The notes: generated by a model not told the origin, from the letters alone. A DNA stretch of 64,000 bases, filler included, from Jimgerdemannia flammicorona (GCA_003990765.1; 3 parts of 3 records of this genome joined end to end with filler, not necessarily neighbours in it), one strand, 5' to 3'. Shown: positions 17,651 through 62,452, numbered from the whole stretch's first letter. Numbers and translations: made by a program.

Positions 17651-17694
17651 CATGGAATACTAGGATGGGACCTCAACTGCAATTATTTTTCAAT

Positions 17695-26675: not shown

Positions 26676-26717
<42 letters not shown>

Positions 26718-35700: not shown

Positions 35701-38023
35701 ATTCCAGCATGGTTCTCTGATAACTTGACTCCAATTCCAGTGCCAAGTAGGGTAGTGGTCTGTGGTTCAAGAGTAGCATCTTGAATGCTGGCAAGGTCCA
35801 TTCCTATGGCTCCTTCAGTCTTGTATTTTGGGATCTTAGCTTTAGGGTGAAACTTCTTGACCTTGAGAGTGATGTCTGATTCTTATTCCTCCTCATCATC
35901 ACTGTCAGCTTGAAGCTCTGGGGGCTGGTCATCTTCTTTGGCTTTCCTTTTTACTTTGGTGGCTTCTTGCTCATGTTTCTATTGGTGGATTTTCCTGACT
36001 TCACTGATACAGGACCAGTAGTCATTCAGGTGTTTGGCAGTACATTCTAGTGCTATGGGGGCATCTTCCTTGAGGGGCATAGCCATCAATGATCTTGTTG
36101 TTATACTGCTCATCTGTGAGCTTGGGTGTCTTGTTCTTGTTCTTGTTCACCAAGTGCATGAAGACCTCTGTGTCCTCTTCATCTCCTTCCTCCATGTCTG
36201 GTAGAACTCCTTTGTGGACATTAATAGAGACTCATACCTTTCTTCCTCTGTAGTTGATCTGCATCTTCTGGGCATTGAGGTCAATGATGGCCTTGGCCTT
36301 GTGAAGCCATTGGTTACCAATGAGAATGTCATTGTTGGTGGTGCTTGTAACAATCATATCTACTGGGATGGTAGCTCCTCCTATCTTAATGGGGACTTCT
36401 CGGATTTTGCCAAGGGGGGTAGCTCATGTACCATCTGCTATAACATAGATCATCTTGGTGAACTCTTCAATATTCTAACCTAGGTGGTCAATTGCCTTTT
36501 TGCTCATGAGGCATCCCCCAGCACCAGTATCAATGATGGCATCAAAGATACAATCTTCAATCTGACATGGAGTATAGGCTGATGTCTTGCACTGGTCTTC
36601 AGATTCTTCATCTGAGTTCTCAGATTCTTCCTGTACATTGTGAGCTTCTACAATCTTGTACTCTTGATTCTTAGCAGTAGTTGCAAGTCCTACTCTCAAC
36701 TGCTGTCTGAAGGCAGGGACTTCAGCTAGCTATCCAAAAGTGGCATTGATCTTCTGTTCTTTGAGGTCCTTGTAGATGTCATACTGGTGGATCTTGGTCT
36801 TGCACAGCTTCTGTTCCTTCTTGCTTTCACTTTCTCCTGAGACTGAAGTAGTGCCTTCAATAATTTGGTGAGCAACTTCATCTAATTCCATGTCTTGATC
36901 AATCTCCTTGGGTTGAGTCTTGCTTTGAATAGTGACAGCTGGGGTCTTCTTTGGTCTTCCAACTGGCTTGCTGTTGCTCTTCTTGTCATAGGGCTTGGAC
37001 TGGGTTCTGGTACCTTCAGTAGCAGAGTAGAATTCAAGCTCCTCATAGTATTCTTCATCATCAGTATCACTGATCTCCTCAATGACTACTGCATTGGTTT
37101 GTTCTCTAGTTCAGCTAGCATTACTTGGTTGGGCTTTGCATCTTATTTCAGTCATGCAACTCTTTGCATAGTGGCCTTCTTCTCCACATCTGAAGTATAT
37201 GATATTGTATTCTTCTGTAGCAGCTGCAAATCTCTGCACTGGTCTCCTGTTGGTACTTTGGACTTCTCTAACAATGTCACTAAGGTGTGCAGTCATCTCA
37301 GCAAACTGCTTGGCAAGTTCCTCCACTGGGTCAGCTTTGGCTGTCTTGGGGGTAGGTGGGATTGGTTGTCTGTTTACGACTGTGGCAGATAAGATACTAG
37401 TTGGCTTTGATGGCTCTATCTTGATGCCAGTTATTTTCTCCATTAAGTGTTCAGCAGGGTGTCTGGCAGTCCAATATCTCTGTACAAAGACCACTTTCTG
37501 ATCAAGAGTCAGTGTAGCTGGGGTAGACTGAATTGCTAGGGCAATTTCAGGGTAAACTTCTTTGAGGAAGATTGAATCTGCTATTTGTTCTTTGAGGTAG
37601 TCATTATAGCTGGCCAAGACAATCTGGTGGCAGATTTGAGTATAGAATGAGTTGGGATCTTCACTAAGTCCCTAGCAGATAGTATTGAGTTGATCCTTGA
37701 GAGCTTGCTTGATCTCTTCAGTATAATATGTTATTCTGAGGAAGACCTTTATATTGGCAAGTTTGGCTGCACCAGCATCAGCAATGGTAGCTGTATTGAA
37801 CTTGTCTCTGGCAGGTCCTCTAAGGCTGACTGGTAGAAGGACCAATTGTGCATCTACACCAAGGGCTTGTATGGTGGCGAATTGTTCAAAGTCTTCAATG
37901 AAGGTCAGAATTGACTCTTCAGTAGTATATCTATAGAATGTGGGGGGACACATTTCCATCTTGTCTTGAATTCTTGCAGGGGTGACTCTTGTAGTCAAGG
38001 TAGTTGTTGTGGGGGTTGTTCAT
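32760..38023 (-). pseudogene. A2 gag-PR-dUTPase-RT-RNaseH and separate-frame integrase
   Basis: IIDTGAG, dUTPase 35187-35801, YIDD in 34584-35171, RNaseH in 33980-34681, integrase from about 33954. Confidence 0.9.
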
Positions 38024-38557
38024 TTTTTAGCTTGAAAGTGAGAGATTCATCTTGAATCACCAGCCAATGAGCACTAAGTTGTCACATAGTAGTTGCTGAG
38101 TCCTTCAAATATGCCAGATTCTCTTCAAGGTATATCTCTTAGATTAACTCAAGTTTGTTATAAGCAAGTTCTTATTGGAGTGCCTTCCCAAGGTCTTATA
38201 GTCCTCAAACTTCTTATCTTTAACTGTCTTGTTATCTCTTAGATTGCTTGCAAAGAAGTGTGTGTATTGCACTGAGTTGACTGACTTTATTTCAGAGGAA
38301 ATAAGAGGGGTATTTATACAAAATATAATTCAATGGTTGCTAAGATATAAAGCTAAATACAAATTCCAATAACTAAAACTACTAAGTTCCAGAGTCAGTA
38401 CTGATGGTTGTACAGGTTCAGAATTCTGGTATTATTTAGTATTATATCAAAATGCCAGTGCTGGAACAATTTCACATCACCTCAGATTATCGGTACTGGC
38501 ATTATCCAGTGTTATATGAGAATACCAGTGCTGGCATTATCCAGTGTAACAAAGCAC

Positions 38558-39397
38558 TTAGAGTAGGAAGTTCAGGACCATGGAAGCTTCATCATCATCA
38601 TCATCATCATTATCACTGAAGGAGATGAGATCCACGAATTTGTCATATAGGTCACACATTTCATATACTTTGCATGCTTCAGGTATATTGTGCAGAATGA
38701 CATCATCACTGATGACATCATCACATTCAGCAGCAGGGAAACCAGGAACAAGATCTGGAGCTCTCCAGTCTATGAGATTCTCTTCCACAAAATAGGGGAC
38801 AAATGTGGAGTCTTGGAGAGATCTAACCCAGATGCTTGGGCCTTAGAATACTGAGATCAATCCTTGCAGGAATTGGTCTGAGTTGTTCTGAAGGATAGGA
38901 TGCCAGAAGTCTTCTACTTCTTCACTGTTGAGAGTGATAGTGGACTAGGCTTCTGTAGCCACCCTGGCTTCTAGTGCATTGATACAGCAGGATGACAGAT
39001 CTCTGAAGTCTGAGACTCTAACATACTCCAAGTTGGGGATTGACCATAGTGCATGCCTGAAGATCTGATGGATCTTCTTAGCTGTCCTCATTTTATATAT
39101 ATTCATGGGAGTGGCATCTTGTAGCTCTTGAGTGCTGGCCTGTGGGAACACCCAGCAGAAGAGGTTATCTATTTCATACTCCTGCCACATTTGGAGGCAT
39201 TCGGTAGCAATGGTGATCCTTGTTTCCATTTTGTGACAGTAGAGAATAAAGTGATAAGAGTCTGCAGTATCCAGGTTAACACTAGGAGTCCTTCTTGAGC
39301 GGGTCTCCATGGCTCTTCTGATGTCTTGGAACATCCTTTCCTTAACTGAGATACCTTGGTGATTCCTTGACCTTGAGGTTTGGTAGGCAGCAGGCAT
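38558..39397 (-). pseudogene. LTR accessory ORF, disrupted (A2 5' LTR)
   Basis: Fragments 38945-39397 and 38558-38788. Confidence 0.8.
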
Positions 39398-39639
39398 TTT
39401 GTTTGTGGTAAGTCTTTGAGTTATTTTGGGATTGGTGGTTCTTATTGATTGCTACTACTGCAGTTCCTTAATCCTTCTTTTATATTCTTCAAAATACTTG
39501 TACTGTGGTCACAATGACTCACAGTTGGTCATCATTGCTCATCTTGTATGCCATATGATCTTCTTGTGCTCCAATCTGATGGCTTGTAAGGAAAGGCTGT
39601 CTCCTGTGCTAATGTCATCATTCTGGGGTCACTATTATA

Positions 39640-41410
39640 TTATATAGTTCTGAAAGAGTTTTCTAGAAGTTCTAAATATTCTAAAAGATTATTTTCTTTA
39701 GGTCAAGATCAATTTTATATTGATTTTAAGATTAGATTAATATTTTAACTTTCTTTTCTTAGACTTGTTCTGAATATTCAGAATTTTTATTATTTCAGAA
39801 AGTTTAGGAAACTAAAATCAGTTTAGTTGAATTGATATATCACTGCAAATAATACCCAATTAGGAATTTCTTTTAGTACTTAAGAGTAGGACCTAATATA
39901 GTATAGATTTACTTAAGGGTAATTTGTAGATTATTAAATAGATTTATTTACTATTTATAATATTATCATTGATAAATACTAGAAATTATTCATATTCAGA
40001 TTGTCTGAGTTATCTGAGGTCTTAGAGAGGGGGTACTTATACTAATGAGAGACTATCTGAGCTAAACTCAATATAGATTTGGTACTTTAGTACTGATTAG
40101 TCAAAATATAATTATAGTATAAATTTTAAACTAATAATCTAGAGATCATCCAAATACTCAGCTCCTTTCTCTGCTACCTTACTGATCACAAGGTTTGGTA
40201 GGCAATCTTCTGAGTCCCCTTTCCCCTATTATTACCTCCTCTACCTTAGGTTGGTTTGCTGTGCCTGCATGGACATGGTGGAAGGAGGGCAATGGTGATG
40301 TGTTGCCTCTTTATCAGTGTCAGATTGATGCTTTCTCTACTTTTTCATGGATTCTGGTACCTTTGGCTGCATCTGGGGTATACTCATTTTGGTGCAGCAC
40401 CTTCTTCCTTTTGCCACTACTAACAAGAAGTTGTCTCAGTGTGTCATGGATTACATAGGGAGTTAGCTGACCTTGGGCATCAAGTGCCCAGTGTAGGTTA
40501 CCTGCAGGTCCTCAGTGTCTGTGGTGGGGCCCTCTGGCTTTGGCAAGCTTCCCAGCAAGCACAGTTCTGGCATAGGTGACAGTTTTTCAGGTATTGTCAG
40601 GATGGAAGGAGAGATGGCCATCATAGATAGGAGGATGGGCAATAATGGTGAACTAGTGGGGTATTAGGCTAGGGGTGGTCATCGGGGCTGGGGCAGACAA
40701 TATTTCAGTGGGGCCTTTCGATTAGCTAGTAGGGGGTAGGGTGGTGCAGGGGCCAGCATCTTGGCTGTACCCAACTGGAACTGGGAGCTGATGCGACAAT
40801 GCAATTGAGGCCTGCAGGCTTGGAGAGTGGGGCCTTCCTCATTTGGCAGTATCTAACTGAAACTGAGAGCTGATATGGTAATGTGATGGGTCTTTTCTGA
40901 CCCTAGCCTATGTGTAAGTCCTTTGTGGAAGGTTCTGTATATAAGTTCTTTACTCACCTGCTTTGAATCTGCTTTGCTCTCTGTTGGTTGGTTGGGGGGT
41001 TTTTTCTTTGCTTTGGGCTTTCTTTTGGGGTTCAGGGGGCTATTCTTTATTCAGTTCTGGTACTGCTAGATCTGATACATAGGTGTGCTCTTACATGTAA
41101 ACAATGATTCAGCCCTGGTGAGCAGACAAGTCTGGTCTATATCATGGGGATCAATGTAGCCAGTGTTTGACAGGCATAGCTAGAGCAGTGGAACTGCTAG
41201 ACAATTTAGTAGCCTAGGTTAATGGGAGATATTGTTTGGTGGATAGTGGGAGATATAGTACTAACTAATTTAACTATACTAATAACTGCTAAACTATTTA
41301 TAGATATATTCTATCTAGGTATTTATTGATAAGATTACTATTAATTATATATATCATTTCTGATAAAGTAATTATTAAAAAAGAGTAGTTTTTAAATTAT
41401 TTTTTTATAC
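39640..41410 (-). mobile_element. Decayed second copy of element D, with an internal ~1.1 kb GC-richer insertion (~40150-41260)
   Basis: 39640-40150 resembles 45443-46010; 41265-41410 resembles 46050-46200, with many C>T/G>A changes. Confidence 0.65.
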
Positions 41411-41863
41411 TGTCACGTAGTGGTCGCTGAGTCCTTCAAATACGCCAGATTCTCTTCAAGATGTATCTCTTAGACTAACTCAAGTTTGTTATAAGCAAGT
41501 TCTTATTGGAGTGCCTTCCCAAGGTCTTATAGTCCTCAAACTTCTTATCTTTAACTGTCTTGTTATCTCTTAGATTGCTTGCAAGGAAGTGTGTGTAAGT
41601 GAACTGAAACTGACTGACTTTATTTCAGAGGAAATAAGGGAGGTATTTTATACAAAATATAATTCAATGGTTGCTAAGATATAAAGCTAAATATAAATTC
41701 CAATAACTAAAACTACTGAGTTCCAGGGCTGGCATTATTTAGTACTACATCAAAATACCAGTGCTGGAACAATTTCGCATCACCTCAGAATACCGGTGCT
41801 GGCATTATCCAGTGTTACATGAGAATACTGGTGCTGGCATTATCCAGTGTAACAAAGAACTTT

Positions 41864-42682
41864 TTAGAGCAGAAAGTTCAGGACCATAGGGGCTTCATCA
41901 TCATCATCATCACTGAAGGAGATGAGATCCGCGAATTCATCATGCAGGTCACGCATCTCGCATACTTCGGGTATGTCGCGCGGAATGACGTCATCGCCGA
42001 TGACGTCATCACGTTCGGCGGGGAAATCGGGAACAAGATTTGGAGCTCTCCAATCTATGAGGTTCTCTTCCACAAAATAGGGGACAAATGTGGGGTCTTG
42101 GGGGGATCTAACTCGGATGCTTGGGCCTTGGAATACTGAGATCAATCCTTGCAGGAATTGGTCTGGGTTGTCCTGAAGGATGGAGTGCCAGAAGTCTTCT
42201 ACTTCTTCACTGTTGAGGGTGATAGTGGACTGGGCTTCTGTAGCCACCCTGGCTTCTAGTGCATTGATGCGGCGAGATGACAGGTCTCTGAAATCTGAGA
42301 CTCTAACATACTCCAGGTTGGGAATTGACCATGGTGCATGCCTGAAGATCTGATGAATCTTCTTAGCTGTTCTCGTTTCATGTATATCCATGGGAGTGGC
42401 ATCTTGTAGCTCTTGGGTGCTGGCCTGTGGGAACTCCCAGCAGAGGAGGTTTCCTATTTTGTACTCCTGCCACATTTGGAGGCATTCGGTGGTGATGGTG
42501 ATCCTTGTTTCCATTTCACAGCGGTAGAGGATGAAGTAATAGGGGTCTGCAGTACCTAGGTGGATACTAGGAGTCCTTCTTGAGTGGGTCTCCATGGCTC
42601 TTCTGATGTCTTGAAACATCCTTTCCTCAACCGAGATACCTTGATGATTCCTTGACCTTGAGGTTTGGCGGGCAGCAGGCAT
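41864..42682 (-). CDS. Intact 272 aa LTR-encoded accessory protein of unknown function
   Basis: Open ATG-to-stop frame entirely within the LTR; homologs in five other A LTRs, in C and in D; acidic C-terminus. Confidence 0.8.
   Translation of the reverse strand: MPAARQTSRSRNHQGISVEERMFQDIRRAMETHSRRTPSIHLGTADPYYFILYRCEMETRITITTECLQMWQEYKIGNLLCWEFPQASTQELQDATPMDIHETRTAKKIHQIFRHAPWSIPNLEYVRVSDFRDLSSRRINALEARVATEAQSTITLNSEEVEDFWHSILQDNPDQFLQGLISVFQGPSIRVRSPQDPTFVPYFVEENLIDWRAPNLVPDFPAERDDVIGDDVIPRDIPEVCEMRDLHDEFADLISFSDDDDDEAPMVLNFLL
41985..42010. promoter_or_regulatory. Two tandem TGACGTCA (CRE-type) palindromes
   Basis: ATGACGTCAT at 41985-41994 and GATGACGTCATC at 41999-42010, in a local CpG-rich patch. 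Confidence 0.55.
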
Positions 42683-42933
42683 TTTGTTTGTGGTAAGTCT
42701 TTGAGCTATTTTGGGATTGGGGTTCTTGTTGGCTGCTACTACTGCAGTTCCTTGATCCTTCTTTTATATTCTTCAGGATGCTTGTGCTGTGGTCACAATG
42801 ACTCACAGTTGGTCATCGTTGCTCATCTCGCATGCCGTATGATCTTCTTGTACTCTGATCTGGTGGCTTGTAAAGAAAGGCTGTCTCTTGTGCTGATGTC
42901 ATCATTCTGGGGTCACCGTTACATCTTCCTCCT

Positions 42934-43033
42934 NNNNNNNNNNNNNNNNNNNNNNNNNNNNNNNNNNNNNNNNNNNNTTAATTAATTAANNNNNNNNNNN
43001 NNNNNNNNNNNNNNNNNNNNNNNNNNNNNNNNN
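42934..43033. other. Assembly gap with TTAATTAATTAA linker
   Basis: N-run. Confidence 0.95.
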
Positions 43034-45340
43034 CCCCCACTACTCCCTCCTCCTATCCCTTCTTGATAAAAGACTACTTTGTCAACCACCATCGCTACCT
43101 GCCCACCACTCTGTTTACAGATCTCTTTCACCAGATGGTGACATTGCCCACCCTGGAGACTCCAACCAATCTACCACCCAGTCAGTAGATCTTCCACCAA
43201 AGTCTCCCACCTCAACAACTTCTCCTGTATCCCTATTTGTTGCCCTTCCTCAAAAACAAAGAGCTAATGCCCAGCCAAACCAACCCACACTGCTACAATC
43301 CACCCTACCATAAGCCACCCATTGCTGACACCTCCCACCAGTCTAGATCTCAAATCCTCCCAGCAACCTCTCTCACCATCTGGCCTCCTTCCTACACCCA
43401 GCTGGTCCTCTATAGCTATCCAAAAGTCTCCCAATATCTCACATTCTCCCAGCCAATGTTCTAGCATCTGCACAACTCCCCCAGCATGCCCTACATTATA
43501 ACACTCCTCACAATCCAGTCAGCTACCAACTACCAGATACTCTGTACAGAAATTCAACATAACATTTCTCTATAGCATTCACCACCAAACTATCCAGAAC
43601 TTGAGAGGAAGCCATCTCTGCATCTCAGCACTCCAGGACCAGATTCCTGCCCAGTCCCACTCCTCACCAATCCCCACTATCTGCCAGCTCTTCAGCCAAA
43701 GATCCTGGCCAAGTCCCTGCTGATACTCCACTCCATTGCCAATATCAAACTCAGCAAGCAGCATCCCCCCTAGAAGCAGTCAGTCCCATTGCCACATAGC
43801 AGGCTCCACACCACCTCTCCCTCATTGCCATACCAGCACAAGCCTATTTGGTGTGCTCCATTCACCACTCTCTATCAGAAGCCCTTATACCTCATCCAGC
43901 AGCTTCCATTCAGACTCACCAAAGAGAGCAAATCACCTGAGGACTCTTGAGGGGAGACTCTCATCTCCCACACCTTTTGCATCAGTAGTACCCAACCTCC
44001 TCCCTGCAGCTCCACTGTCCTTCTCAACCACCAGGCTTGCAGACAGTATAGCTGCTTAGGAAAATCTATCAGACCTAGGCCTCTCTTAATCCTCTGCTCC
44101 ACAAGGATATCCCAACTGATCTGGGACCTTCTTCTTGTCCAAATCCAATACCTAACCAGTTTCATCAGCCTCTTCACCACCCAGACTAAAAAGTCTAAGT
44201 GATACACCACATACCATAGCTTGGGGAACCAGTAAACATTCAAGATTGATACCCTCCCTATCAGAGAGATGTGACAACCTCCCTAACCTCTAAGAGCCTC
44301 CCCCCAAACAGCTACCCTTCTCTCCCACTATACCCATGGTAAGACTGACCTATATACAGAAAGAAAGATACCAAGATACTACACTATCTCTCCTGTGGGG
44401 ATAATTGTTCCAATGATATCTCCTCCCACTAGCCCATTTCCCAACACTATTGTCTCACACTTATACTAGTTGAGTTTTGCTCCAGAGTGCATCTCATACC
44501 ATTCCACTGTTTCCTTAAGTGCCTCCACATCCACCACTGATCCAAGTCCAACTACTATATCATCTGCAAAGGCCCCCACCTTCTTCTGGATCCTATCCAT
44601 CAAAGGTTCCAGTGAAAGTGCATAAAGAATAGGGGACAGCGGGTCTCCCTGGGGAACTTCTCTTCTTAAGGGAAATGCCAAACCTCTATAACTATTGCAC
44701 ATTAGTACTGCCCTACTGCTCTCCAACAACTTCAACATAGAAGCCCTAAACTGTTGTGGAACACCAATTCTATCCAGCACCTTGCCTAACCATACCTACT
44801 GAACATGGTCATAGGCCTTCTCCTGGTTCAGAAATATCAGTCTACCATCCAGTTTGCAAGCCTAGGCCCCTTCTATAATGCCATGCACCCAGGTAGTCCT
44901 ATCTCTGATAAGTCTTCCTCCTACAAAGCCCTGCTGTTCCTCACTCAGTACCTATTGAGCAACCTTCTGTAGCCTTGCAACAATCACCTTAGTCACTAAC
45001 TTCCTATTCATATCCAGAAGCATGATTGGCCTCCAGTTCTTCCAGTTCTCTTGTCCACTCTTGTCTTTATACAATAAGGCCACCAGCCCCAGGTCTTGCT
45101 TACCAACCCACTCGTCATTCAGAAGAACATAGTCACAGAGGGCAGCCATCTCTCCTAACACTTCAGGAACCTTTGTCATCTTCTTCCAGAAGTCCCAAGG
45201 TAATTCATCCTCCTCAGGTACCATCTCAATCTTAGTTGCTGCAAGGACCCCCTGGACCTCCTCCTCTTGGACTGGTAAGATCAGGTCACTCAGTCTCTCT
45301 ACCTATGGTGGCTCTCACTCTTCCAGAGCATCACTAATTG

Positions 45341-47478
45341 TGTAAGTGCACAACCTCCAAGCTACTGAAATCACATGTTACCCTCTGAACAAACCACCCA
45401 CTACTTCCAAGTTGTAAGAGGGTTGCTTTTTAGGATAACCATTATGTAGTTCTAGAAGGGTTTTCTGGAAGTTCAGGATGTTCTGGAAGACCATTTTCTT
45501 ATGGTCAAGATCAATTTCATATGGAGTACATTCTCTATGCTTATTGATTTCAAGATTAGGTTGATATTTCAACCAAAGTCCTTTTTTAGACTAGTTCTGG
45601 ATGTTCAGGATTTTTCATATTTCAGAAAGTTTAAGAAACTAAGATCAGCTTAGTTGAATTGGCATATTGCTGCAGACAATACCCAATTAGGAAATTTCGT
45701 GATAGAGTTAGGAGTGGGATCTAACAGGGAGTGGATTTACTTAAGAGTGGTTTGTGGGTTATTAAATAGGTTTATTCGCTATTCATGATATTACTATACT
45801 AAAAGTAGTTGTATGAAGAGATATTGTGGGGAAGTGTTCAGGAATGTTCTTATATATTCGAGTCTGAGATTCTGAGGTCTGGGGGAGGAGGTATTTATAC
45901 TAGTAAGGGGCTATCTGGACTATGCTAAATATGGATATAGTACTAAGTGCCTTGCTGAGTCGGAATACAGTCACGTAGTACAAGTGTGATCTGATATATC
46001 AAGAGATTGTCTGACTGCTGAGTCAGTTCACAGTCATATTATACAAGGCTAATCTAACTATACTATGACTGCTAAGCTATTTATAGGTTTAGATACTGTC
46101 TAGGTAGTCTTCAATGATATGTATCACCATCTATGACATCATCTCTGATGAAGTAGTCATCCAGGAAGAGTGGTTTGTGGATTACTTCTCCTTGTTCACT
46201 GAGGTAATAATACATTGGGACATCATCACCATCCTACAGGATAGCATCATCTGTCTCATATGCTGGATAAGGTGTTGGTGGGTGAAAGAGGGGTGCATTG
46301 TCTTCACTTTCATCAAATTCACTGTCTGTGTATCTTCTATAGATTACAGTACTATGAGTCACAGGATTGTAGTAAGCTGGTGGCTGTGGTTCATATCACT
46401 CATACTCAGGTGGTGGAGTGGTTGGTTTGATCTCAAGAGTTATCTGGAGGTATAGGTTATGTTCTCTGGTCTCTTCATTATAGTTGAAGTAATTAGAAGT
46501 AAATGTGGGTTGGTATTTATGCCAGTGGTCATTGTCCCAATAGGTTTCATATATAGTTATGAACTATTGTAAGTTCATTGGCAAGATTGGTGGTGTGATC
46601 AGAGTTGGTAGAGATCCTTGGCTAGAGGTCATGTTGGCATCAGAGAGATCATTGTCTTCTGCTTCATCTTTGTCGAAGTAGATTATATCATAGACATCTT
46701 TCATAGTATATCCAACTTGAGGCATTTGTAGGATATGATCATTGGGATGTAGGAAGGTTCTGTCTGTGGTCTCGACATATTCAAGGTACTTGTGGTTAAG
46801 TTCTTGTATCATGTCATCAATTTGGCCATAGGATAGAGTAGCAACCATTTCACTGGTAGTGACATGGAGGTGGGGAATAAGGGTGCTATACTCATAAAAG
46901 AGTTCTCTGTGTTTGCAGATGATGAGCTTTTAGTATTGAAACATCTGGATAATGTCTGTATTATGGTGGTGTTTGACTATATCTTCTAGGAGGTGGCTGA
47001 TCTGGTAGTAGCTTGAGATTTGTCCAATCCAGTGGGCCTCATTAAGCATGTTCAGGGTGTTCCATCAGGCTTCCATGAAGTAGAGAGGTACTAGACTATG
47101 GATATTCATGAGGGGCAGAGGGGGTGTGACTTGGTTGACAATGGCATTCCAAATGTCAGCATGGATACAGTTGTAGATCTCAGTGGTCATGTTTGTGTGT
47201 TTGGAAGTTGTGGTTGTTATTTGTTTTGGTTCTCTGTTTTGATGTATCTCAGTGCTCAGTATATATGCATTTGGTCCTGATTGGTAAGATTCTGTTTGTA
47301 TGAATCTTGTGTTCTGTGACTTCATATTGACTCAGCTTTGTGTACTGTAACTTCAGTTTGACTCAGCTTCATGATCATGCAGGTGATTTCTAGATTTATT
47401 CAGAGGTCATGTGTGATTTCGGTGGCTTGTTTGGAGGATGACATGTGATTTCAGTGGCTTGGAGGTTGTGCACTTACA
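45341..47478 (-). mobile_element. Element D: 2138 bp, ~58 bp terminal inverted repeats, 5 bp TSD AATTG (solo LTR or non-autonomous TIR element)
   Basis: Left end TGTAAGTGCACAACCTCCAAGCTACTGAAATCACATG; right end is its near-perfect reverse complement; AATTG at 45336-45340 and 47479-47483. Confidence 0.88.
46111..47190 (-). pseudogene. Distant homolog of the accessory ORF inside D
   Basis: 47065-47325 and 46564-46848 share a frame bridged by two stops; a frameshifted acidic tail runs to 46111; ungapped motif blocks align with the A and C ORFs. Confidence 0.6.
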
Positions 47479-50400
47479 AATTGCCTCTCTCTCCACACTC
47501 TCTTCTCCCTCACTCCACAGATCCTACCAACTCTCCTTCAATACCCCCAAGATCTGTTGCATACTATATACCATATTCCCTTTAGTATCCAAGACTCCAT
47601 CCCACCTATGTCACACCCTTCTAGCTTTGAGGAGTCTAGACAAGTACCTAGTAGGTCACTCCCCCTCCTCTAGCTCCTGCCACTATAACCTGGTAGCCAT
47701 CTCTTGCATATGAGTCTCTTCCTCCTTCCTCAACACCTGTTGCAATTCCACTACCTCCAATTTTGCCCACTCTAACCTCCAATCATCCATCTCCACAGAA
47801 GAAAGCAAGTCCACCCATTCCATCTGCAATCTCATCAGCCTATTTAAAGTACACCATATGTGCTTCCTCCTCTGTCTCTCAGCCTCTCTACCAGCTCTAC
47901 CCCAATAAACCCTTGCAGCCTCCTTCAACCTCATCCACCAGACACCGACAGACAAACCCTCATGCCTCTAGATAGGAACCTTCACCTGTACATCCTCCAC
48001 CCATGAGTCTCACAACCCCTTCTTAGCCAGCAGAGAGGAGTTAAGGTACCAATGTCTGGGTCTATCTCCACTTCCCCCAAACTGCCCCTGCCCTAATAGT
48101 CCCCAGTGATCAGACCATGGGCACCACTCCACCTCCAAAGACTTCCAAACATCAGTACCCCAATATTCAGCTGTCAGTATCCAGTCAATCCTTGTGCTGT
48201 TGCCCCACCATGTCCTGCCCATATCTCCTAAGGAGCTAAGATTCTCTACCTCCTCCCATACCTCCAGGCCACCACTCCTCTCACCTGCATTTTTTCTGCC
48301 ATCAGTTCTATCTAGATGCAGATCCCAAACCATATTAAAATCCCCACCCAGAATATTGACTCCTTCCTCTAAGAGAATACTCTCCTCCAGTAGCTCCCCA
48401 ATCTATACAATCCTCTCACCCCTAACTATAAGGCAGTAATAGGAGCCAACCCACACCAATTCCTACTCTGGCTGAATCCAATCTTCCCAGACCAATCTAT
48501 TACCCCAGTTCCTGATTCCCCTCAGGTCTCCTCTACTCTTCTTCACCAGAATTGCCACTTTGCCAAACCAAGCAGTAGCCCCACCCCATTCTCTAGTCCA
48601 CTCCACCCAATCATCCTCATCCTCACACTGTACATCCTGTAGTAAGAAGAGATCAGCCTCCAATCCCTTGAGCAAAGTGAAAATATTCTTATACATACTA
48701 CCCAGAACCCCTTAACCTATTCACATTTAAAGAGAAAATGTTGGTTGTACTGTTCATAGGAAATAATGTTTGATATCACTCACACTCTCTACAAATCCAC
48801 ATTCAACTTCTCCTGTACCAAGTCCAGGTCTCATTCAGTCACTAGTTCATTCTTCTCAGCTTCCTGTGCCTCCAACCCTCCCAGAAGTTCAGCCATTGCC
48901 CTATTCTCTCTCTCCTCAAAGTCCTCATGATACTCCAGACAGACCTCCTGCCAGAGCTACAAACCATAATGCTCTGCCCAACAGTAGGCAGCTCTCTCAC
49001 CTTATCAACCTCATATCCCTCCTCTTCCATGAAAATCACCAGAATCTCTACCTTCAGTGCCTCCACCACCCCATTACTATGCAGAATCCATGCCCAATAC
49101 TCCTCAGACAATACACACAGATCCACTTCTCCCAACTCCTCAGCTGTGAGATTATCCATCACCTTACTCATCCACAGCAGGTTCCTCACCTCCTTCCCTC
49201 CTGGAGTTCCTGGCCACCCTGCATCCAACATTGTGGTATCAGCTCCCATACTGGCAGCCTCATCCCACTCCTCCTCAGAGACATCCACCAGCTCATCCTC
49301 ACCAACTGCCACTACCTGGCCCCCTTTTACTACATTGGGGACCCCAAAGTGCACTTACTGAGCTCTCTGCATCAGTACATCCTCTGTTGGCCCTCTCTTC
49401 ACAGCCAGGCCCCTCCTGATAAGAGGGGGGGAAGTGGCCTCCAACTCCTGCTCCCAGACTTTGAACATACTGTCCATATAGGGGTCCTTGCTTGGCACCT
49501 TCCCAGCTCCTTCCTTGTCTGCCTCCACCTCCCCTTCACCTTTACTAGCCCAGACACTGGCTTCAATGCTCCCAGATATGTCAGCCCCATCTACCTTCTT
49601 TTTTGCCCCTTCTTTCATACTTACCAATAACTCCCTCTGCCTCCTGCACCCCTGGGCCTGCTCTCACTGCCACTTGTTAGTGCAAATACACTTCCCATCC
49701 ACAATCTTCAGATGTGTTGCCTCCTCAAACACTCACCAGGCCTTTGCCCTCCTCTCAACCACACCACTCAGCTCCTCCAGAGCCTCCAACAAGTCCTCCT
49801 CCTCCTCATCACTCTCTTTCACCCTCGACACCTTACAGACAAAAACCCCCCACATTAGTACTGAGGGCCAGTTACTTGCCTTCCTGGTGGCCTCCTTTCC
49901 CACCAGCTGAATCCTGACATCAATGTCACCTATCCTGAATATAGTCCTCTCCCACATCTGGAAGCCAATATCCACCATATCACTATACTCTACCATCACC
50001 TCCTCCATTCTTCTCCTAGTCTCCTCCTTCATCACCATCAGCACCCCCTTTACTAGAAGCTGCACCACCCTGGGGTCCCACCTCAAGTACCACACCATAG
50101 GGACCACTACTTCCCCAACCACTATTCCAGCCTTCAGGGCCTTGTCCAGTGGGCCTGCCTCCTCAAAGCCCACCTCAACTCCCTCCAGACTCTTCAGGAA
50201 CTTTACCAAGACTGCCCCAGCCACCTGCTTTAAAATCAGCCCCAAGACCATCCTCACCATCACTGCTAAGCCTTGAAAGCACAGGGTAGCCACAAACTCC
50301 AAGATTGATTTCTTGAGTAATGGGGCCACTGCCAGCCCCATTACACCATCCGCCAGATCCCCCTTCCGCATTGGGACCCCCTGCCTCACCTGGCCATCAG

Positions 50401-51924
50401 CCAGCACATCTCTTTTTTTTTTCTGATCCCTCATTACACTCCCATCAACAGTTACACCCCCAGCCACAGCCCCTCCTGCCCCTATGCTCCTATCTCCTCC
50501 CTGAGGGCCACTCCTCCTCCTGACACTAGCCTTGCTCTTCCCCTCAGCAGTGCCAGCCCTGATTCCAGCAGGCCATCTACCTGTCTTCACCTTATCAGCA
50601 AAGCTGGAGGGACCAGGCCTACCCCCAGATCCACCAGACACTGGTCCTTCTCTAGAGCCTTTGCCACCCTTTGACCCTCCAAAAGCCCCCATCTCCAATC
50701 CATACCCTCTCCCCACATGCTGCCAGCTAAAAGCCTCAGGTCCATCTGACCCAGCATACTCATCAGAACTCTTGCTCGATGACATATTTATAATACCTTT
50801 CCTCTGAGTTGTGTTGAAAAACTGTTGCTTGAGATTGGTGTAATGTGAATTGTACCAGAGAAAGGTGATAATATAGTTATCTCTGTATGGAGGTCTTGGT
50901 CATTAGATAAATCTAGTTTTGAGGATTTGAAGGAGATATATAGTATATTGATAAAGGTATTATATAATTGTGGATTGGGGAACAGTTCTGTGATGATGAA
51001 AGCTTATCTTAACTCTTTGGAAAATTCTTCAGAAAGATCCTTAAGTTCACTTACTATCTCTTCTTTAACAGCAATTAAATATTCTCTCAGTATTATTTGA
51101 TAAATAGATTCTGAGTAAGTCTGTTGTTCATTTATATCTAATAGCAGAATTCTAAGATAAGGGGACATATGCTGTAGAATTAGATAAAGGGGTAAAGGAG
51201 ATATACTCTACTTACTTTACTTTAATAGGGGTTGGAGTAACTTCTGGAAATGTATTAGACTGCTTAAGCAAAGCAATGGGCAAATATATATTTAATGCTA
51301 TCAGCATTTATTCAGTATCATTATTCTATCAAATAGTTGATATATAATATATTATATGTATATTCATCTATCTGATCTATGGTAATAAGTGAAAATATAG
51401 ACTGGCCAAAAGTTTATTAATATATTTATTCTTGTATCTGATCTATAGCTTGTTAATGTTATTCATACATCTGTTCCATGAGCCATAAGCAATGAAGCTG
51501 CAGCCAAAAGCTTATTTAATATATAGATATATATTTATATATATTATAGATTGGGCTTTAGTCAAGAGATAATACCAAAAGCTTAGTATATCTATATTAA
51601 TCAGTCTTGTTAATCAGTTTAAAAAAAAAAGATATATATTCATCATTTTTCTATTATTTTAAAAAGAAAGAAAGATATAATTTAATTTAATATATATTTG
51701 TGCAGCTCACCCTTGTGCTATAAGCAAAAATAAAATATAAAGGAGACTATGAATGTCTATGTTACTCTTCTATTTATCTGCTATAATCACTAAAAATTTG
51801 TATAAAGTGGCCAGACTATCAGTTGGATCTTTCAATAATGAATTTGATAGTAAAGAGTGTAAGAGCATCAGCAAGAAGGACAAGGATATCAGCAATGATA
51901 TGGTGGATTATACCAAAAAACTAG

Positions 51925-52235
51925 CAGTCCAATCCAGCAAGAGTGGCATTAGCTAACTCAGTAAGAGTAGTATCAGTTAATCTAGTAAGAGCAGTATTAG
52001 CTAACCTAGTAAGAGTAGTATTGATCAACTCAGTAAGAGCAGCATCAGCTAATCCAGCAAGAGCAACATTGGCCAACCCAGCAAGAGTGATATCAGTCAA
52101 CCCAACAAGAGTGGTATCAGTCAACCAGTCAGCCAACTCAGCAAAAGCAGCATCAGCAAACTCAGCAGAAGTGACATTGATGAACTCAGCAGGAGTGGCA
52201 TCAGTAAACCCAGCAGGAGTAGTATTGGTCAGATC
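51925..52235 (+). repeat. 24 bp tandem repeat (~12 units) in a decayed ORF
   Basis: GCATCAGCTAATCCAGCAAGAGCA-like unit; 8 aa periodicity in the ORF track. Confidence 0.8.
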
Positions 52236-52989
52236 AATCTAGTCAATAACAGTGACTATGAAACCCAACTGAATAAAAAAGAACAAACTCACATCGAAAT
52301 CAAGCTGAGTCAAAATGACCAGATCAGCCAATATGAAAGCAGAAAAAATGAACTTACAATATCTCACCAGACTAACTCTAGTTATTCTGACCAATTGAAC
52401 CAAACCACACAGAGAAAATGTGACCAAAATAACCAGACCAGCCAATATGAAAATAGGAAAAATAAACTTATGATATTCTACTGGACTGACTCTGGCTATT
52501 CCGGTCAATCAAACCAAACTATGTAAAGAAAATACAATTATATAACATTTAGTAAAGAAGATGATTATGATGAAAATTACATATCTAATGACAATTGGAG
52601 TGATTCTAAGAGTGCAGTCTTACTGGCTCTAAAAAACTATACAGATCTCCTATGAGAATCAATCACTTCTTATATCAGTTATACTGAAGATACCTGTAAG
52701 AAGTACTGGGTGGCAATGGCTGCAGATCAAAAAGAAAAAAGAAGGATAATTGATTCTCAACTTGGAATTAAGTAGACCAGAGTACAGGATGATGTTTTGA
52801 AGATACTAGTTGAAAAGAGTACTAGTTAGGTATAAATTGCTATAATAATTCCAGATTGGGATCTGAAACAGTATGAAAAAAAATAGAGAGAGATCAACCA
52901 TGGGCACCATTAGAATAGTATTGATCAATGAGCTCTACTAGCCACTATAGTATGTATTTTTTTTTTTTTTTTGAAATAAAAAACACTTA

Positions 52990-53180: not shown

Positions 53181-54931
53181 TTTTCAAAAATAAATATGAT
53201 GGCTGAGTGATTATATGGACAAATTGGGCTTGATTCCTAACCTGAACTCTAACTCTCTTCTTATTTGCTACTACTGCTGCTACTAATTAATATAAGATGT
53301 TCTCAAAGTAAAGGAGCTTTACTTTAAAGATATATTTGAAGATATAATATTTGCAGATATGGGGTTAGCTCTAAGATAGATATTGAAGATAATATAAAAA
53401 GTATATATATTTAATATACTATAACTACTTATAATAATTTTACTATTATATTTTAGTCTTAGTACTTTTTTACATCTTCTTTTTTATCATTTTTTGAATA
53501 TTCTACTATATTCTGGTACTTTCTGAATACTTAGAAATTATCTCTTAGTACTAAGATATTATTAAAATATTCTTATCTTCTCTTGATACTAAGTATTTTA
53601 TCTTAGTTAGTTATAAACCCTTTTAGAATATTGTAGAATTCTATTAGTTATCTTTGCTGAGAACCTATTTCTTAGCTTTTCTCTTCTTTTTTAGATCCTT
53701 CTTTCAGATCCTATATAAATATTCTTATTTTTTATTTAAATAAAACTCAGAATATTTTCTCTCAGAAATCCTTTCAGAATACTTAAACCTATAAGTATCT
53801 CTTTGAACTACTTTAGACTCACTAAAACTTTCAGTCTTAGCTACTTCCTCTTAAAGAAACTAAAACTATTATACTTAATAAAGTAGTATCATTATACTTT
53901 ACCTTATTAAGAAATCTTATATAAATTTAGAAACTAGTTACAACTAGTTATATAAGTTCAAAATGAGCTATATATAATTAGTCTACCAGCCAGACCTCTC
54001 TGCTACAGAAGAAGTAGAAAATACTGAACCATAAGTTAGCTTAGAAGATATAGTTACCACTATGGCTCACTAGCTCTGATAACTTTAAGTACAATTAGAA
54101 TATTAGAAAATGTAATAGCTCTTGGTTCTATCCCTCTCTTATCCTTTGGATAATTAGGGAAGTGGACTATTACTTAGGGACTTAGTACACAATGTGTACC
54201 AAGAAGCCTTTAGTTTGAGGAAGTACTCACTTAAAGTAGTTGTAGCGGCAGTGCCTTATCTTTCAAAGGTCTTTCTCTGATTTGCCTTCTGTTTCAAAGG
54301 TCTTTCTCTTGTGCCCTATTTTGAGGGTCTTGTTCTTTGCTGTGCACAGACTGAATTCACCTTGGAATTCAGGTTCAATGGATTTACTTAAGTCTTTGGA
54401 GATTTATATACCGGTCTCAGTTCTGGTAGAAGTTAGCTAGGCTTCTGGAGTTTAGTCAGAAATACTAGAGTCACTTAGATGTCATTACTAAGACTCAGGG
54501 GAATGTGTGTGTGTGGGGGGGACTGGATTCTTGTATCAAGGACTGAACTAAAACTGCTTTATTTCAGATAGAAAACTGGGGGGTATTTATACAAGTTGGT
54601 CCACGATTTCTGACTAAGTATGAGTGACTAATTTGGTAACTATAATGAGGTTTGTGATCGCGACCTTTGTCAGGTAGTTTTTGGTAAAAACAACTTTGTG
54701 ATCAGGACCTCAATTACTAGGCAATGATCAGCTGCTATGGCAACTGTTGCTGCGGCACCGATTGTTGGGGATAAGCTGGATATCATTTTCCACGTCATTT
54801 TGCATCATTCATTCGTCACTTGCTATTCATATGTTGTGCTTGATTGTATGATGATGTCATCACCGGGTCACGTGATCACTTGTCGTTCGTCGCATCCCAT
54901 CTGTTTGTCATTCTATTACATCCTTCCCCCC

Positions 54932-55741
54932 TCAGAAATCAACGTCCTTGTTGATTGAGAAATTGAGAACCAGGGGAGAGAAAGGTGGGGAATCTTCCTC
55001 AGGGGCAGGGGGGGTGGTTGTTGCTGATGGTTCACTGTCCAGAATAGAGAAGTCAATGAGGTCTGCAAATGGTTCTTGCATTGGAATAGGTGCTGGTGTA
55101 GGGGTTCTCCATCTGATGCAGTTGGGGCCATCCAAGTAGGGCTCTTGATCTTCATGCCTGGGAATATCCATTCGGATAGGTGGTCCTTTAAAGAGGTCAG
55201 AGAGACCTTGGAGCCATTGGTCAGAGTTGTCATTCAGGAGAGGGCTCCAGTAGGGTTCATAGTCAGTAGACTTGAGGGCAATCCAGGAGTTGGCTTCTTG
55301 GGCAACCTTGACTTCTAGGGCATCGACCTCAGGGAAAGAGAGGTTCTGGAAGTCCTTCAGTTGTATGTAGTTGAGGTTGGGGATTGCAAAGGGTGCATGG
55401 TACATGATTTGATGGATCTTCTTGACAAGTCTTTGCTTGTGCCTGTCTAGGTGAGTCCAGTCAGAGACTTGGTCTGTGGGCAGGTCCTTTGCCCATTGGA
55501 GGAGTTGATGGCCAATCTCATATTCATATCAGATTTCTAGGTGGCTGGTAGCAAGGTAGGCTCTTTCAATGACTTCATGGCGGTTGAGGACATAGTGTCC
55601 TAGGTTCTGGCTGGAGAGGTTAAGGGCCTCTGAGCAGCAGTTCCTTCCTTGGATGGCAACCTGGATGTGTCCAAAGAGGCGGTCAACCTGGCTTGGGAGG
55701 GGCTGGCTGCAGCAGGCAGTTTGGTGGTGGGTGGCAGGCAT
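54932..55741 (-). pseudogene. Accessory ORF of C (homolog of the family A LTR ORF), one internal stop
   Basis: MPATHH...KKIHQIMYHAPFAIPNL...FADLIDFS...PLVLNF; the stop abuts the PPT. Confidence 0.85.
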
Positions 55742-56383
55742 TCTTGTCTTGTCTTTTCTTTGTGAGGAAAGGGAGATGAGAGTTGCAGGGTATTCTTGCC
55801 TTGGGTATTTATACTTATTTGCCCATCTGATGTAACCTTCCTTTGGTCACACTTTCTGGCAAAATGCATGACCTGTGCTATAAGTGGAGCATATGCTGGT
55901 CACATGAGGAAATCCTGATTTCAAAGATCTCGTCACCTGTCTGTGGTTACACAGGGTTAACAGGTCTTGGTCCACTTTTTTTTTTGTCTGGTTGGCGCAT
56001 TTGCGAGGACTGGCCATCCTTGTCTAGGGCGAGGGCTCTCATTGTCATGGCTGGGGGTTCGAACCTCTCAGAAATAGACTTTCTTATAATCTGAGGCAAT
56101 TCTTAGTAACAATATCTATCACGTGGATGGACTTAGACTGGTTTTGACATTGTCAGCTTTTCTAAGTTTCACATGAAGCGTCTGTCATCATCCAGCAGAG
56201 ATGATACAGATGGCGTGAAATGGAGTTGTTCAAATGCATTTTGCTGTACTGTACTAGATTGTTCTTTTGCTTGGGTATCTTCTTGTTGGTTATCCATAGT
56301 GTTCCTTTTTTCACAATGTTCGGTATTATATGTTTCCAGATAAAAATATGTGGTATCCTTCTGTTCACTGTGTGCTCCTATAC

Positions 56384-59300
56384 TTAGAGCTGTAGTTCCT
56401 TCCTTTGCTGGGGGGTGAGTGTTTCCATATAGTCCTGGAGGGCTTCGCATGCATTCTTCAGGGCTTCTTCTTTTTCCCAGGTGGTATCATAGGTGGGGTA
56501 ACCCTTCCACTTGATCAGGAAAAAGTGCTTGACTGTTTTGGGATATTTGCAGACCTTGTGGTCAAGTACTTCCTCAATTTCGAATTCCTCATGATCATTG
56601 ATCCTAATTGGGAATAGTGGTGGAACTATACACTCAGAGAATGGGTTCTCGTGGTAGTCCACCAATTGGCTGATATGGAATACTGGGTATACTCAGATAT
56701 TGTGGGGAAGTTGTAACTTGTAGTTGACTTCACTGATTTTTTCCACGATCTTGTATGGTCCAATTCTTTTAGCACGGAGTTTCTTGGCTGGTTGTTGTGC
56801 CAGAGTGTCTGGGTGGAGGTGGTCTGTTCTAAGCATGACCTTGTCACCAATATTGTAGGAGGCTTCTCTTCATTTCAAATTCGTGTACTTGGTCTGGTAG
56901 TCTTGTGCTTCTATGAGAGCATCTCTTATCATTCGCATAAGGTCAGAAATGGTCTCGGCCAGATCTTGGGCTACTGGGACTGCTGATTTCGCGGTAGTAC
57001 TTGGGGTCCTTGGGTGTTGACCATGGTTCAGGAAGAATGGAGTCTTCTTTGTGGAGGTTTGCTGACTGTTGTTGTAGGCAAACTCAGCATGGGCCAGGTA
57101 CTTGTCCCAATAATTTTGCTTGTAACAGCAGAAGATGCTAAGCATCTGTTTGAGAGTCCTGTTTGTTTGCTCAGTTTGACCATCAGTCTGAGGGTGGTAG
57201 GTAGTAGAGAACTTCAGCTTGGTTCCATAGAGAGAGAAAAATGCCTTCCAGAAGTTGCTTGTGAACTTGGCATCTCGGTCAGATATAATGGTGCTAGGCA
57301 TGCCATGTAGCCTGAATACTTGATTGAGAAAGATCTCGGCAATCTCTGGTGCTGTAGCAGTGGTCTTGGTGGGTGCAAAATGGGCTTGTTTACTTAGGCG
57401 GTCCATGAATACCACAATGGCATCCCATCCTGCCTTGGTCTTGGGGAGTTGGACAATGAAGTCCATCACAATCTGGTCCCAATTGTAACTCGGGATAGGC
57501 AAGGATTGCAGGAGTTCTGCTGGTAGCTTGTTACCACTTTTGAACCTTTGGCACATCTCGCATGAGGCCACAAAGTCTTTGATATCCCTGGTCATCTTTG
57601 GCCAGTAGAACTCTTTTGAGAGGAGGTTGTAGGTCTTTTCAAAACCAAAGTGTCCTGCTGCAGGAGTATCATGGAGTTCCTGCATGATTTTGAGTCGCAG
57701 AGTATCATTGTTGGGTACAACCACTCTGTCATGGTCCCTGTAGATAAGTCCATTACAGTAGGTGAATCTCTTGGCCATTTGCCTCATGGGTTCTGGAATC
57801 TCGGCCTCTGGGTCTTGGCAGAACTGAAGGAAATTCATCAGTGGGCTGTCTTGCTAGTAGCCATCTTTGATCATTTGGGTAAGGTCTCCAATTACTTCGA
57901 CCATGAAGACAAGTTCATCTTCCATGTACCTAGAGAAACCATCAGCCACACAGTTGGTTTTGCCTGGGATATACTTGATTTCCATATCAAAGTTAGCAAT
58001 GATTTCCATCCAGCGGGCTTGTCTGTGGGTCAGCATGGGCTGTGTGTGAATATACTGTAGTGTATGGTGATCAGTGTAGGCCACAAATGGCTGTCCTAGG
58101 AGGAAATGGTGCCATTCCTGGAGTGCAGTGACAATAGCCAGAAGTTCCTTCTCATGGGTGGTATACCGGGTCTCAGCTGGCTTGAGCTTCTGTGAAAGGT
58201 AGGCCACTGGGTGGTCTTCTTGGCTGAGCACTGCTCTAATAGCAATGTCAGAGGCATCTATTGTCAGAGTGAATGGTCTGGTAGGATCAGGTGCAATTAG
58301 CACTGGGGCCTCAGTAAGGAGTCTCTTGAGATGGTCCATAGTCAGGGTACATTTGGGGGTCTATTCAGCTTTGATGTTCACTTCTTTATGGGCCAGGCTG
58401 GTCAATGGGGCTGCAATAGCAGAGTATCCTTGGATAAACCTTTGGTAATAACTGGCGATACCCAGGAAGTACTGGAGTAGCTTGAGGGTAGTAGAGATAG
58501 GGATATCCTTAAGAGCTGATACCTTTCGGGGGTCCACATTGATACCTTCAGCAGAGATGATGTGTCCTAAGTACTCAATCTGGTCTTGGTAGAACTTGCA
58601 TTTGCTCATCTTGGTATAGAGCTGGTGTTCTTGCAGGAGGGTCAGTACTTGTCTAAGGTGGGTGTAGTGTAGCTCTACTGTCTTGCTGTAGATTAGTATA
58701 TCATCAATATACACAAGGACACAGATGTTGAGAAGTAGTCCAAAGATATCATTCATCAGATACTGGAATGTTGCTGGTGCATTGGTCAATCCAAAAGGCA
58801 TGACTCAGAACTGGTAGTGTCCAAACCATGTTCGGAAAGCTGTCTTCTCAATGTCCTTCTCATCAATGAGAATCTGGTGGTAGCCATTTCACAAATCCAG
58901 TAGAGAAAAGGTCTTGGCCTTGAAGATTTGGTGTAACAACTCATCAATCCTGGGCAAGGCATACTGGTTCTTGATAGTGATCTTGTTGAGGACTCTATAG
59001 TCAATACACATTTGCAGAGAGCCATCCTTCTTCTTGACAAATAGAATGGGGGCTCCAAATGGAGAGTGGCTGGGTTCAATATATCCCTGGGCCAGTAGTT
59101 TGGTCAATTCATCCTTGAGGGTCTTGAGCTCAGGTTGAGCCAGTTGATAGATACTCTTGTATAGGGGTTTAGATCCTGGAATAAGATCAATTCCATGTTG
59201 GATTTGGCGCTTGGGTGGAAGTTCTTGAGGATCTTGGAATACATCTTGGAATTCTTCAAACAGTTCTTGAGCTTCTGTTGGAATTGGGCTGCTTGTAGCA

Positions 59301-62366: not shown

Positions 62367-62452
62367 AGTTATTTCTGGGGGTTACTCCTGTCCAAGGTTG
62401 GTCTTGTTCCAACTTCAGGAGTGTGTTCTTTGATGCCTTCTTGGCTGGTAAT

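Follow-up and report, generated by a model that had tools for sequence, protein, structure and literature searches.

Element D, an LTR-retrotransposon remnant whose long inverted ends seem to stem from a single copying error

Element D, a 2138-bp unit with long terminal inverted repeats (TIRs), is an LTR-retrotransposon remnant of unusual build and not a new class of element. It lies in a stretch of 64,000 nucleotides that was analysed as a whole (the window), is kin to two retrotransposon families of the same window, A and C, and appears from its sequence to be a dead single insertion from a third Ty3/Gypsy family of the chromovirus type. The long inverted ends look like the result of an isolated copying accident, not like the mark of a hitherto undescribed type of DNA transposon. 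On the minus strand, the unit would consist of a 2066-bp LTR (47478 to 45413), the trinucleotide ACT, a primer-binding site (PBS) and, in inverted orientation, a duplicate of the 58 nt with which the LTR begins. We place roughly even confidence in a reading in which an LTR-plus-PBS molecule of the strong-stop type was extended by snapping back on its own U3 and was then integrated through two U3-type ends. D itself is inactive; it has accumulated C>T and G>A changes since its insertion and serves no function today.

Results and discussion

The setting of element D

The window is made of three contigs joined by N44-TTAATTAATTAA-N44 linkers (21421-21520 and 42934-43033). It is eukaryotic repeat DNA, with a CpG observed/expected ratio of 0.11 over the whole length. 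The elements neighbouring D were defined by comparison of the window with itself and by Pfam searches, and are collected with the features of D in Table 1. Both A and C encode a protease, a dUTPase, a reverse transcriptase, an RNase H and an integrase, and C additionally encodes a chromodomain (Pfam, E=2.2e-11). Gypsy elements with a chromodomain and a dUTPase are known from basidiomycetes and Tuber, according to the available part of PMC2864245. The host of the window is presumably a fungus. The LTRs start with TGTAAC in A, TGTAAT in C and TGTAAG in D, and the terminal inverted repeats of the A and C LTRs measure only about 6-8 nt. The window contains no tRNA gene, hence none to pair with a PBS, and no Rfam family was found within 45000-47800.

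Table 1. Features of element D, of its target and of neighbouring elements, in window coordinates.
Feature	Position	Strand	Description
A1	217-9083	+	LTRs 217-1820 and 7519-9076
B	internal part 22895-26684; LTR 29077-30620		relative of A
A2	30864-39640	-	A-family element
D2	39640..41407	-	hypermutated D-family LTR fragment; matches D 45441 to about 46200, 72-77% identity
A3	41408-42923	-	3' LTR of a third A copy; purine tract AGGAGGAAGA precedes, at contig end
Target LINE, RT-domain part	43040..45340	-	LINE-type non-LTR retrotransposon; Pfam RVT_1, E=1.4e-23
Left TSD copy AATTG	45336..45340	.	read directly; paralogous LINE has one pentamer here
Left TIR arm	45341..45398	+	58 nt; putative inverted duplicate of the beginning of U3 of the LTR (LTR on minus strand); 90% complementary to right arm
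PBS-like 18-mer	45392..45409	-	begins TGG; ACA, ACT, TGG... layout as at A1 and C junctions
Spacer ACT	45410..45412	-	3 nt, from LTR end to PBS-like piece; same spacer in A1 and C
Canonical D-family LTR (predicted)	45413..47478	-	2066 bp, TGTAAG...CTTACA, 6-nt terminal inverted repeat; placed by ACAACTTGG and contig loose ends
GTATAAATAC	45891..45900	-	TATA-type core promoter motif common to A and C LTRs
Accessory ORF	46111..47190	-	359 codons from ATG plus terminal TGA (360 codons)
TGATGTCA	46134..46141	-	decayed copy of palindromic CRE-like TGACGTCA, within the last codons of the ORF
Two tandem 31-nt repeats	47307..47368	-	upstream of the ORF, each with TGACTCA
Right TIR arm	47421..47478	-	putative true U3 start of the LTR; inner 18 nt repeated at 47412-47429
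Right TSD copy AATTG	47479..47483	.	read directly
Target LINE, upstream part	47484..49800	-	same LINE; weak Pfam Exo_endo_phos match, E=7.5e-4, 19.8 bits, under the curated 24.5
C	54111-63277	-	810-bp LTRs; TSD GAAAA (5 bp)

Element D entered a LINE as a single piece

A first-pass annotation, made from the sequence alone, had described D as a unit with TG..CA ends, inverted repeats of about 58 bp and a perfect AATTG target-site duplication (TSD), carrying no transposase. These descriptions are borne out. The termini read TGTAAG...CTTACA, which is true of 45413-47478 as well as of the whole unit, and both copies of the pentamer are intact. The two arms span 58 nt and are complementary at 52 positions (90%), all six differences being transitions, and six read-through frames of D contain no Pfam family at E<=0.01. 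Subterminal repeats occupy 47412-47461.

The sequences on either side of D belong to one LINE. A paralogous copy of this LINE at 18140-19627 is colinear with both flanks by tblastx and is uninterrupted at the site of D, where it carries a single pentamer, AATGT. The alignment offset to the paralog (q+s) is 64327 on the left side of D and 66470 on the right, so that the D-bearing copy exceeds the paralog by exactly 2143 bp, the sum of D (2138 bp) and one copy of the TSD (5 bp). D therefore entered the LINE ORF2 as a single piece. One contig from a sequencing run (X2) bridges 45213 to 47508 with 151 letters in between, equal to 127 + 24, the length to be expected of an empty site.

A probable LTR terminus and a PBS-like sequence inside the left end

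A second LTR-type terminus is located 72 bp inside the left end of D and is followed by a PBS-like sequence. The minus strand here reads ...CCCTCTTACA ACT TGGAAGTAGTGGGTGGTT..., with ACA at 45415-45413. The 9-mer ACAACTTGG has three matches in the window, in A1 (1818-1826), C (62462-62470) and D (45407-45415), where 0.65 would be expected by chance per whole window. The matches in A1 and C are the 5' LTR/PBS junctions of these elements; the A2 junction carries ACAACTTAG in the same place. The three bases ahead of the 9-mer in D are CTT, which completes CTTACA, an exact inversion of TGTAAG at the start of the LTR, and the resulting 6-nt terminal repeat is similar to those of the A and C LTRs. 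Contigs of other copies have loose ends at the two termini: two contigs in run X8 quit D at 45415 for two different and unlike sequences, and five contigs (two in X5, two in X8 and one in X2) depart from D at 47478/47479.

Taken together, the junction 9-mer, the CTTACA hexamer and the contig loose ends place the canonical LTR at 45413-47478, and its minus-strand end (…CTTACA) most likely lies at 45413; for the U5 end and the PBS of the D family this placement draws on A, C and two metagenome contigs, not on a full-length D element. The remaining 72 bp on the left are most likely made up of the spacer, the PBS-like 18-mer and the inverted first 58 nt of the LTR. For the PBS we assume 18 nt, its length in textbook accounts of plus-strand strong-stop DNA. 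Contig depth in the bin 45317-45408 is 93.6, 3.9, 0 and 3.6 in runs X1, X5, X8 and X2, respectively, and 1643, 107, 81 and 200 in the next bin, a step that fits an LTR end near 45410 but is left uncounted, because contig depth cannot rank the parts of a stretch and the left and right arms compete for placement.

The first-pass annotation had offered two interpretations of D, one of them being a solo LTR of a third family with unusually long TIRs. Half of this stands. D does contain what appears to be an LTR from a third family, kin to A and C, with a TGTAA start, a 5-bp TSD as in C, an ORF about 290 bp in as in A, and a CRE-like site together with GTATAAATAC; the long TIR is most likely no part of that LTR, which leaves 72 bp extra. 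Solo LTRs are by far the commonest remnant of LTR elements, and the TG..CA ends, the 5-bp TSD and the LTR-type promoter layout would all suit an ordinary solo LTR, left by LTR-LTR recombination in a family with 2138-bp LTRs and 58-nt inverted repeats. We nevertheless regard this origin as improbable. It requires the CTT-preceded junction 9-mer at 45407-45415 to be a chance match, at this very spot and on this strand, when about 0.65 matches are expected; the two X8 contigs diverge from D at 45415, and the terminal inverted repeats of the A and C LTRs measure only about 6-8 nt. An LTR is not all that lies between the TSD copies: the unit also holds the PBS-like piece and the inverted 58 nt, and so does not qualify as an ordinary solo LTR left by recombination. 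The D-family LTR as such probably lacks the long inverted repeat. Compared with the solo LTRs of dUTPase-bearing Gypsy chromoviruses, as far as the accessible text of PMC2864245 describes them, D is alike in its TGT..ACA termini, its 5-bp TSD and the U3 promoter layout that it shares with the neighbouring A and C, and differs in its PBS-like sequence and inverted U3 start, and in an LTR that holds a 359-codon ORF.

The other interpretation was an LTR-derived unit that moves like a Ginger-type DNA element. In the available portion of PMC2836005, Ginger elements are defined by TGTNR termini, TIRs of about 40-270 bp and a 4-bp TSD, 5 bp being found only in TDD-4/5. D resembles Ginger1 and Ginger2/TDD, as they appear in that portion, in its TGTNR ends, in TIRs of tens of bp (58 bp, within the stated range), in a short TSD and in an integrase-type enzyme presumed to act at both ends; the subterminal repeats at 47412-47461 would also suit a mobile TIR family. 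The 5-bp TSD fits TDD-4/5 (PMC2836005, same portion) and equally the Gypsy integrase of family C. On the other side, most Ginger TSDs in that source are of 4 bp, including those of Ginger1 and metazoan Ginger2. D carries no transposase, and no Ginger-type gene was found among the 21 large ORFs of the window that were scanned. The left arm runs straight into a PBS-like sequence, for which a DNA transposon has no need. Other copies, represented by the two X8 contigs, part from D at 45413-45415, and no family sharing both arms was evident, though contigs are unable to prove that such copies are absent. Movement as DNA thus finds no support as a family property, and it is very unlikely that D belongs to a mobile TIR family, be it a non-autonomous Ginger-type transposon or an LTR-derived unit repeatedly moved as DNA.

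A snap-back-extended strong-stop product as the possible origin of D

Plus-strand strong-stop DNA (U3-R-U5-PBS) is a normal intermediate in the reverse transcription of LTR elements and is not known to be integrated. The minus strand of D shows LTR, spacer and PBS in the same order, with no gag after them, and differs from strong-stop DNA by the added inverted U3 end and by its residence at a chromosomal site with a TSD.

In the reading that we favour, a DNA of the plus-strand strong-stop type would have missed the normal second jump. Its 3' end (...GGTGGTT) would have annealed not to the minus-strand PBS but to ...AGCCACC, nt 52-58 of U3 in a plus strand. Extension to the 5' end of this template, running off at U3 nt 1, would then generate the observed inverted arm. 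The product would bear two identical U3-type ends, TGTAAG...CTTACA, like the normal cDNA of the family; the true U5 end is also CTTACA, and the integrase could not distinguish such ends from a U3/U5 pair. The integrase would presumably have inserted the whole unit at once into the LINE ORF2 with a 5-bp duplication. As both ends of the product would read TGTAAG...CTTACA, integration with a 5-bp TSD would need nothing unusual of the enzyme. The snap-back reading predicts a D-family PBS of TGGAAGTAG..., and an LTR that ends at the equivalent of 45413 and is then followed by ACTTGGAAG...

Several details of the junction bear on this scheme. The inverted arm begins inside the predicted 18-nt PBS: the last 7 nt of the latter (45392-45398) overlap the inner end of the arm, with AACCACC in the left arm and AGCCACC in the right arm, and the shared sequence may represent microhomology. 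The only arm difference within the overlap, at position 53 (A versus G), is the base that a PBS-derived primer would leave. Transitions predominate among the changes here, and arm differences made up of transitions alone would be expected if the two arms had matched fully at the time of insertion, given a CpG observed/expected ratio as low as that of the window. The overlap is partly definitional, and a PBS piece of 11-14 nt would leave no microhomology; host end-joining, instead of the reverse transcriptase, could also have attached the inverted arm. Self-priming of the Tf1 type was considered as well, and no complement of the PBS region of 10 nt or more was found within the D, A or C LTRs. 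A literature search at the level of titles retrieved no described integrated product of the LTR+PBS+inverted-U3, strong-stop or snap-back kind, so that the snap-back mechanism comes without a documented precedent in that search.

D could alternatively have been put together from two pieces, through the concerted insertion of two separate cDNA ends, one an LTR+PBS piece and the other a short piece of the U3 end, that were then joined by microhomology, or through a normal insertion that was later rearranged. Retroviral integrases are known to integrate two donor molecules in concert in vitro, and the same anatomy, together with the GGTGG microhomology, would suit an end-joining junction. For a later rearrangement to account for D, its breakpoints would have to coincide with an LTR terminus and with the TSD, whereas the insertion comes to exactly 2138 + 5 bp; the two-donor route calls for two rare events instead of one. 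We consider an origin from two pieces unlikely. The two-donor route and snap-back leave the same sequence.

A false lead is hereby removed, since the long TIR of D speaks neither for a new TIR superfamily nor for LTRs with giant inverted ends. If the snap-back reading is true, D would be the relic of an aberrant reverse transcript that was integrated by way of two U3-type ends, the terminal hexamer alone would suffice for these integrases, and a concrete path by which LTR ends become TIRs would be at hand. In the accessible part of their paper, Bao et al. (PMC2836005) call the chain of events from LTR to TIR unclear and offer one hypothetical route. That D is a natural example of the proposed origin step for integrase-type DNA transposons such as Ginger is a long shot. 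If it were one, a replication error would have yielded a unit with two identical inverted ends of the LTR type, inserted by an integrase; any related integrase could excise or copy such a unit of gene and promoter and move it once more, and some D-family copies would constitute a young TIR-bounded family moving without reverse transcription.

Other copies of the D family

The window contains one further D-family fragment, D2, which has a GC content of 24%. It is cut by A-family LTRs on both sides, by A2 on one and by A3 on the other, and is split by an insertion of about 1.1 kb; A2 interrupts it before its end. Transitions account for 84 of the 114 differences between D2 and D, and 72 of these 84 are G>A or C>T in the direction from D to D2. 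The AT-rich segment 30621-30869 was considered as the missing end of D2 and was dropped, since its alignments are no better than those of shuffled sequences (transition-tolerant local alignment scores of 25.5 versus 26.5±5.1, 87 versus 80.6±7.9, and 66 versus 64.5±7.5).

Contigs 80-99% like D were present in all four sequencing runs tried (3388, 474, 297 and 385 contigs), which indicates that the family is repeated in the organisms of those runs. Nine runs share D sequence, each with a share of at most 0.18 and with no RNA run among those listed. A profile search with the D alignment gave 74 pattern matches among metagenome contigs and 20 among viral contigs, none of them relatives, and the 22-mer at the TIR start had no match in the metagenome, viral and genome contig collections. 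While a full-length D-family element was not seen in these searches, one X2 contig runs past 47479 with the reverse complement of AAGAAGGGGAGAG, a sequence resembling a polypurine tract (PPT) like the tracts of A and C, which hints that full-length relatives may exist. This loose end is weak evidence because the LINE flank of D itself, beside 47479, is likewise purine-rich on the relevant strand.

The accessory gene of D is related to that of A and C

The accessory ORF of D begins 289 nt from the LTR start; in A the corresponding distance is about 240-305 nt. It contains five in-frame stops (at 47065, 46930, 46564, 46396 and 46234; TGA, TAA, TAG, TGA and TAG) and no frameshift. Two database proteins are evident relatives. 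P0003 (247 aa) is 61% identical over D residues 116-357 (pairwise E=5e-97), and P0008 (128 aa) is 80% identical over residues 2-129 and shares the start. Each carries sense codons wherever it spans one of the stops, and together they cover all five. The stops thus represent decay and not recoding; a variant genetic code is ruled out by the mixture of TGA, TAA and TAG and by the sense codons in the intact relatives. Two other proteins, P0009 and P0010, were set aside as spurious relatives, being internally repetitive.

The first-pass annotation had also claimed homology of this ORF to the A/C accessory gene, on the strength of four aligned blocks. Earlier and shallower comparisons gave E=0.21 with BLASTP and E=0.12 with hhalign, and a later hhalign comparison gave E=0.013 over 119 colinear columns. 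With a profile HMM of eight A/C sequences, P0008 scored 8.9 bits, a score reached by 2 of 5000 shuffles. With an HMM of 12 sequences, which takes in the full C ORF and all A copies, P0008 scored 21.7 bits (0 of 5000 shuffles), aligning over 120 residues with one 3-residue gap, and the same four blocks were aligned. The 12-sequence HMM gave 4.9 bits for the decayed N-terminal 130 aa of D (31 of 5000 shuffles), 2.3 bits for the full D ORF (67 of 5000) and -0.1 bits for P0003, which represents the C-terminal part (419 of 5000). The P0008 score supports the homology of the N-terminal domain of the D ORF (about 120 aa) to the A/C accessory gene, so that the earlier claim holds for this domain by way of an intact relative; over the C-terminal two thirds, homology to A/C was undetectable by profile HMM. 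The D ORF itself matched no Pfam family at E<=1, with only sub-threshold noise. A search of the ESM Atlas gave no usable match, the Atlas model of P0003 having a pLDDT of 0.39, and AlphaFold with a 12-row alignment returned an unusable model (pLDDT 42).

In A and D the accessory gene is part of the LTR and lies in U3, whereas in C it sits immediately outside the LTR and ends just before the purine tract and the 3' LTR. With one accessory gene in three related families, this is a clear-cut example of an LTR boundary that shifts across a gene. Retroviral genes located in U3 or overlapping it include sag of MMTV and nef of HIV. D and A are alike to these in that the accessory ORF sits inside U3 and is duplicated with the LTR; neither viral gene is known to have a sequence or fold relationship to the accessory ORF.

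Promoter motifs and repeats in the D LTR

The accessory ORF is positioned just upstream of a CRE-like site and a TATA motif. A layout like that of an A LTR had been described downstream of the D ORF from the sequence alone, and the two motifs, TGATGTCA and GTATAAATAC, are indeed found there on the minus strand. The order TGA(C/T)GTCA, then GTATAAATAC, then C/T-rich sequence is common to A, C and D. An intact or decayed CRE-like octamer precedes GTATAAATAC in four of the five A LTR copies and in both C LTRs; in the A3 LTR copy the octamer is present and an exact GTATAAATAC is absent. At the matching position, TGACGTCA falls inside the ORF in the A LTRs and outside it in the C LTR. D2 has GTATAAGTAC, a one-base variant of GTATAAATAC. 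The tandem 31-nt repeats upstream of the ORF in D have decayed counterparts in the opposite orientation at 45953-46055.

Displacement of the LTR boundary relative to the accessory gene

The accessory gene, an open reading frame common to the three LTR families A, C and D, does not hold a constant position with respect to the terminal repeats. In families A (window positions 217–1820 and 41408–42923) and D the gene lies within the LTR, in its U3 portion. In family C (54921–55765) the same gene sits outside the LTR and ends shortly before the purine tract that precedes the 3′ LTR. The CRE-like sequence TGACGTCA forms part of the coding region in families A and D and is non-coding in family C. 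The boundary of the LTR has shifted across the accessory gene.

Decay of the repeats and mismatched flanks

D2, the second LTR fragment of the D family, is marked by strong G>A / C>T hypermutation, with a GC content of 24% and a CpG observed/expected ratio of 0. It is split by an unmutated insert of ∼1.1 kb, and the span holding this insert has a GC content of 46%. A 250-bp stretch of AT-rich DNA separates the LTR ends of A2 and B, a relative of A; its start resembles D2 by eye (TTATATAG...), a likeness not borne out by alignments, which score no higher than shuffles.

Across the whole window, the CpG observed/expected ratio is 0.11 and that of TpG+CpA is 1.21, and differences between copies are mostly transitions. 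This pattern is the signature of repeat decay that is RIP-like or driven by cytosine methylation.

The pentamers flanking A1 differ (GTTAT at 212–216 and CTAAC at 9077–9081), as do those flanking A2 (TTTAT and TTATA, 30866–30870/39640–39644). The two elements may be inter-element recombinants, or else their flanks may have mutated. Because the window consists of three contigs placed end to end, neighbourhood across either linker is not real.

Positions of features in the window
Feature	Position	Description
D2	39640–41407 (-)	between A2 5′ LTR and A3 3′ LTR
Insert in D2	near 40148–41240
Span holding the insert	40087–41264
AT-rich DNA	30621–30869	between B and A2 LTR ends
Linkers (two)	21421–21520; 42934–43033	N44-TTAATTAATTAA-N44
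Tandem array	51906–52231	repeat family D4
Open frame	52053–52526 (+)
GC-skewed stretch	16001–20000

The tandem array comprises ∼13 diverged units of 24 nt, and its end is overlapped by an open frame for which a Pfam search returned no match. The GC-skewed stretch (GC 0.52, GC skew +0.46 to +0.53) is far from the remaining window in composition and overlaps the LINE paralog that serves as the empty site for the D insertion.
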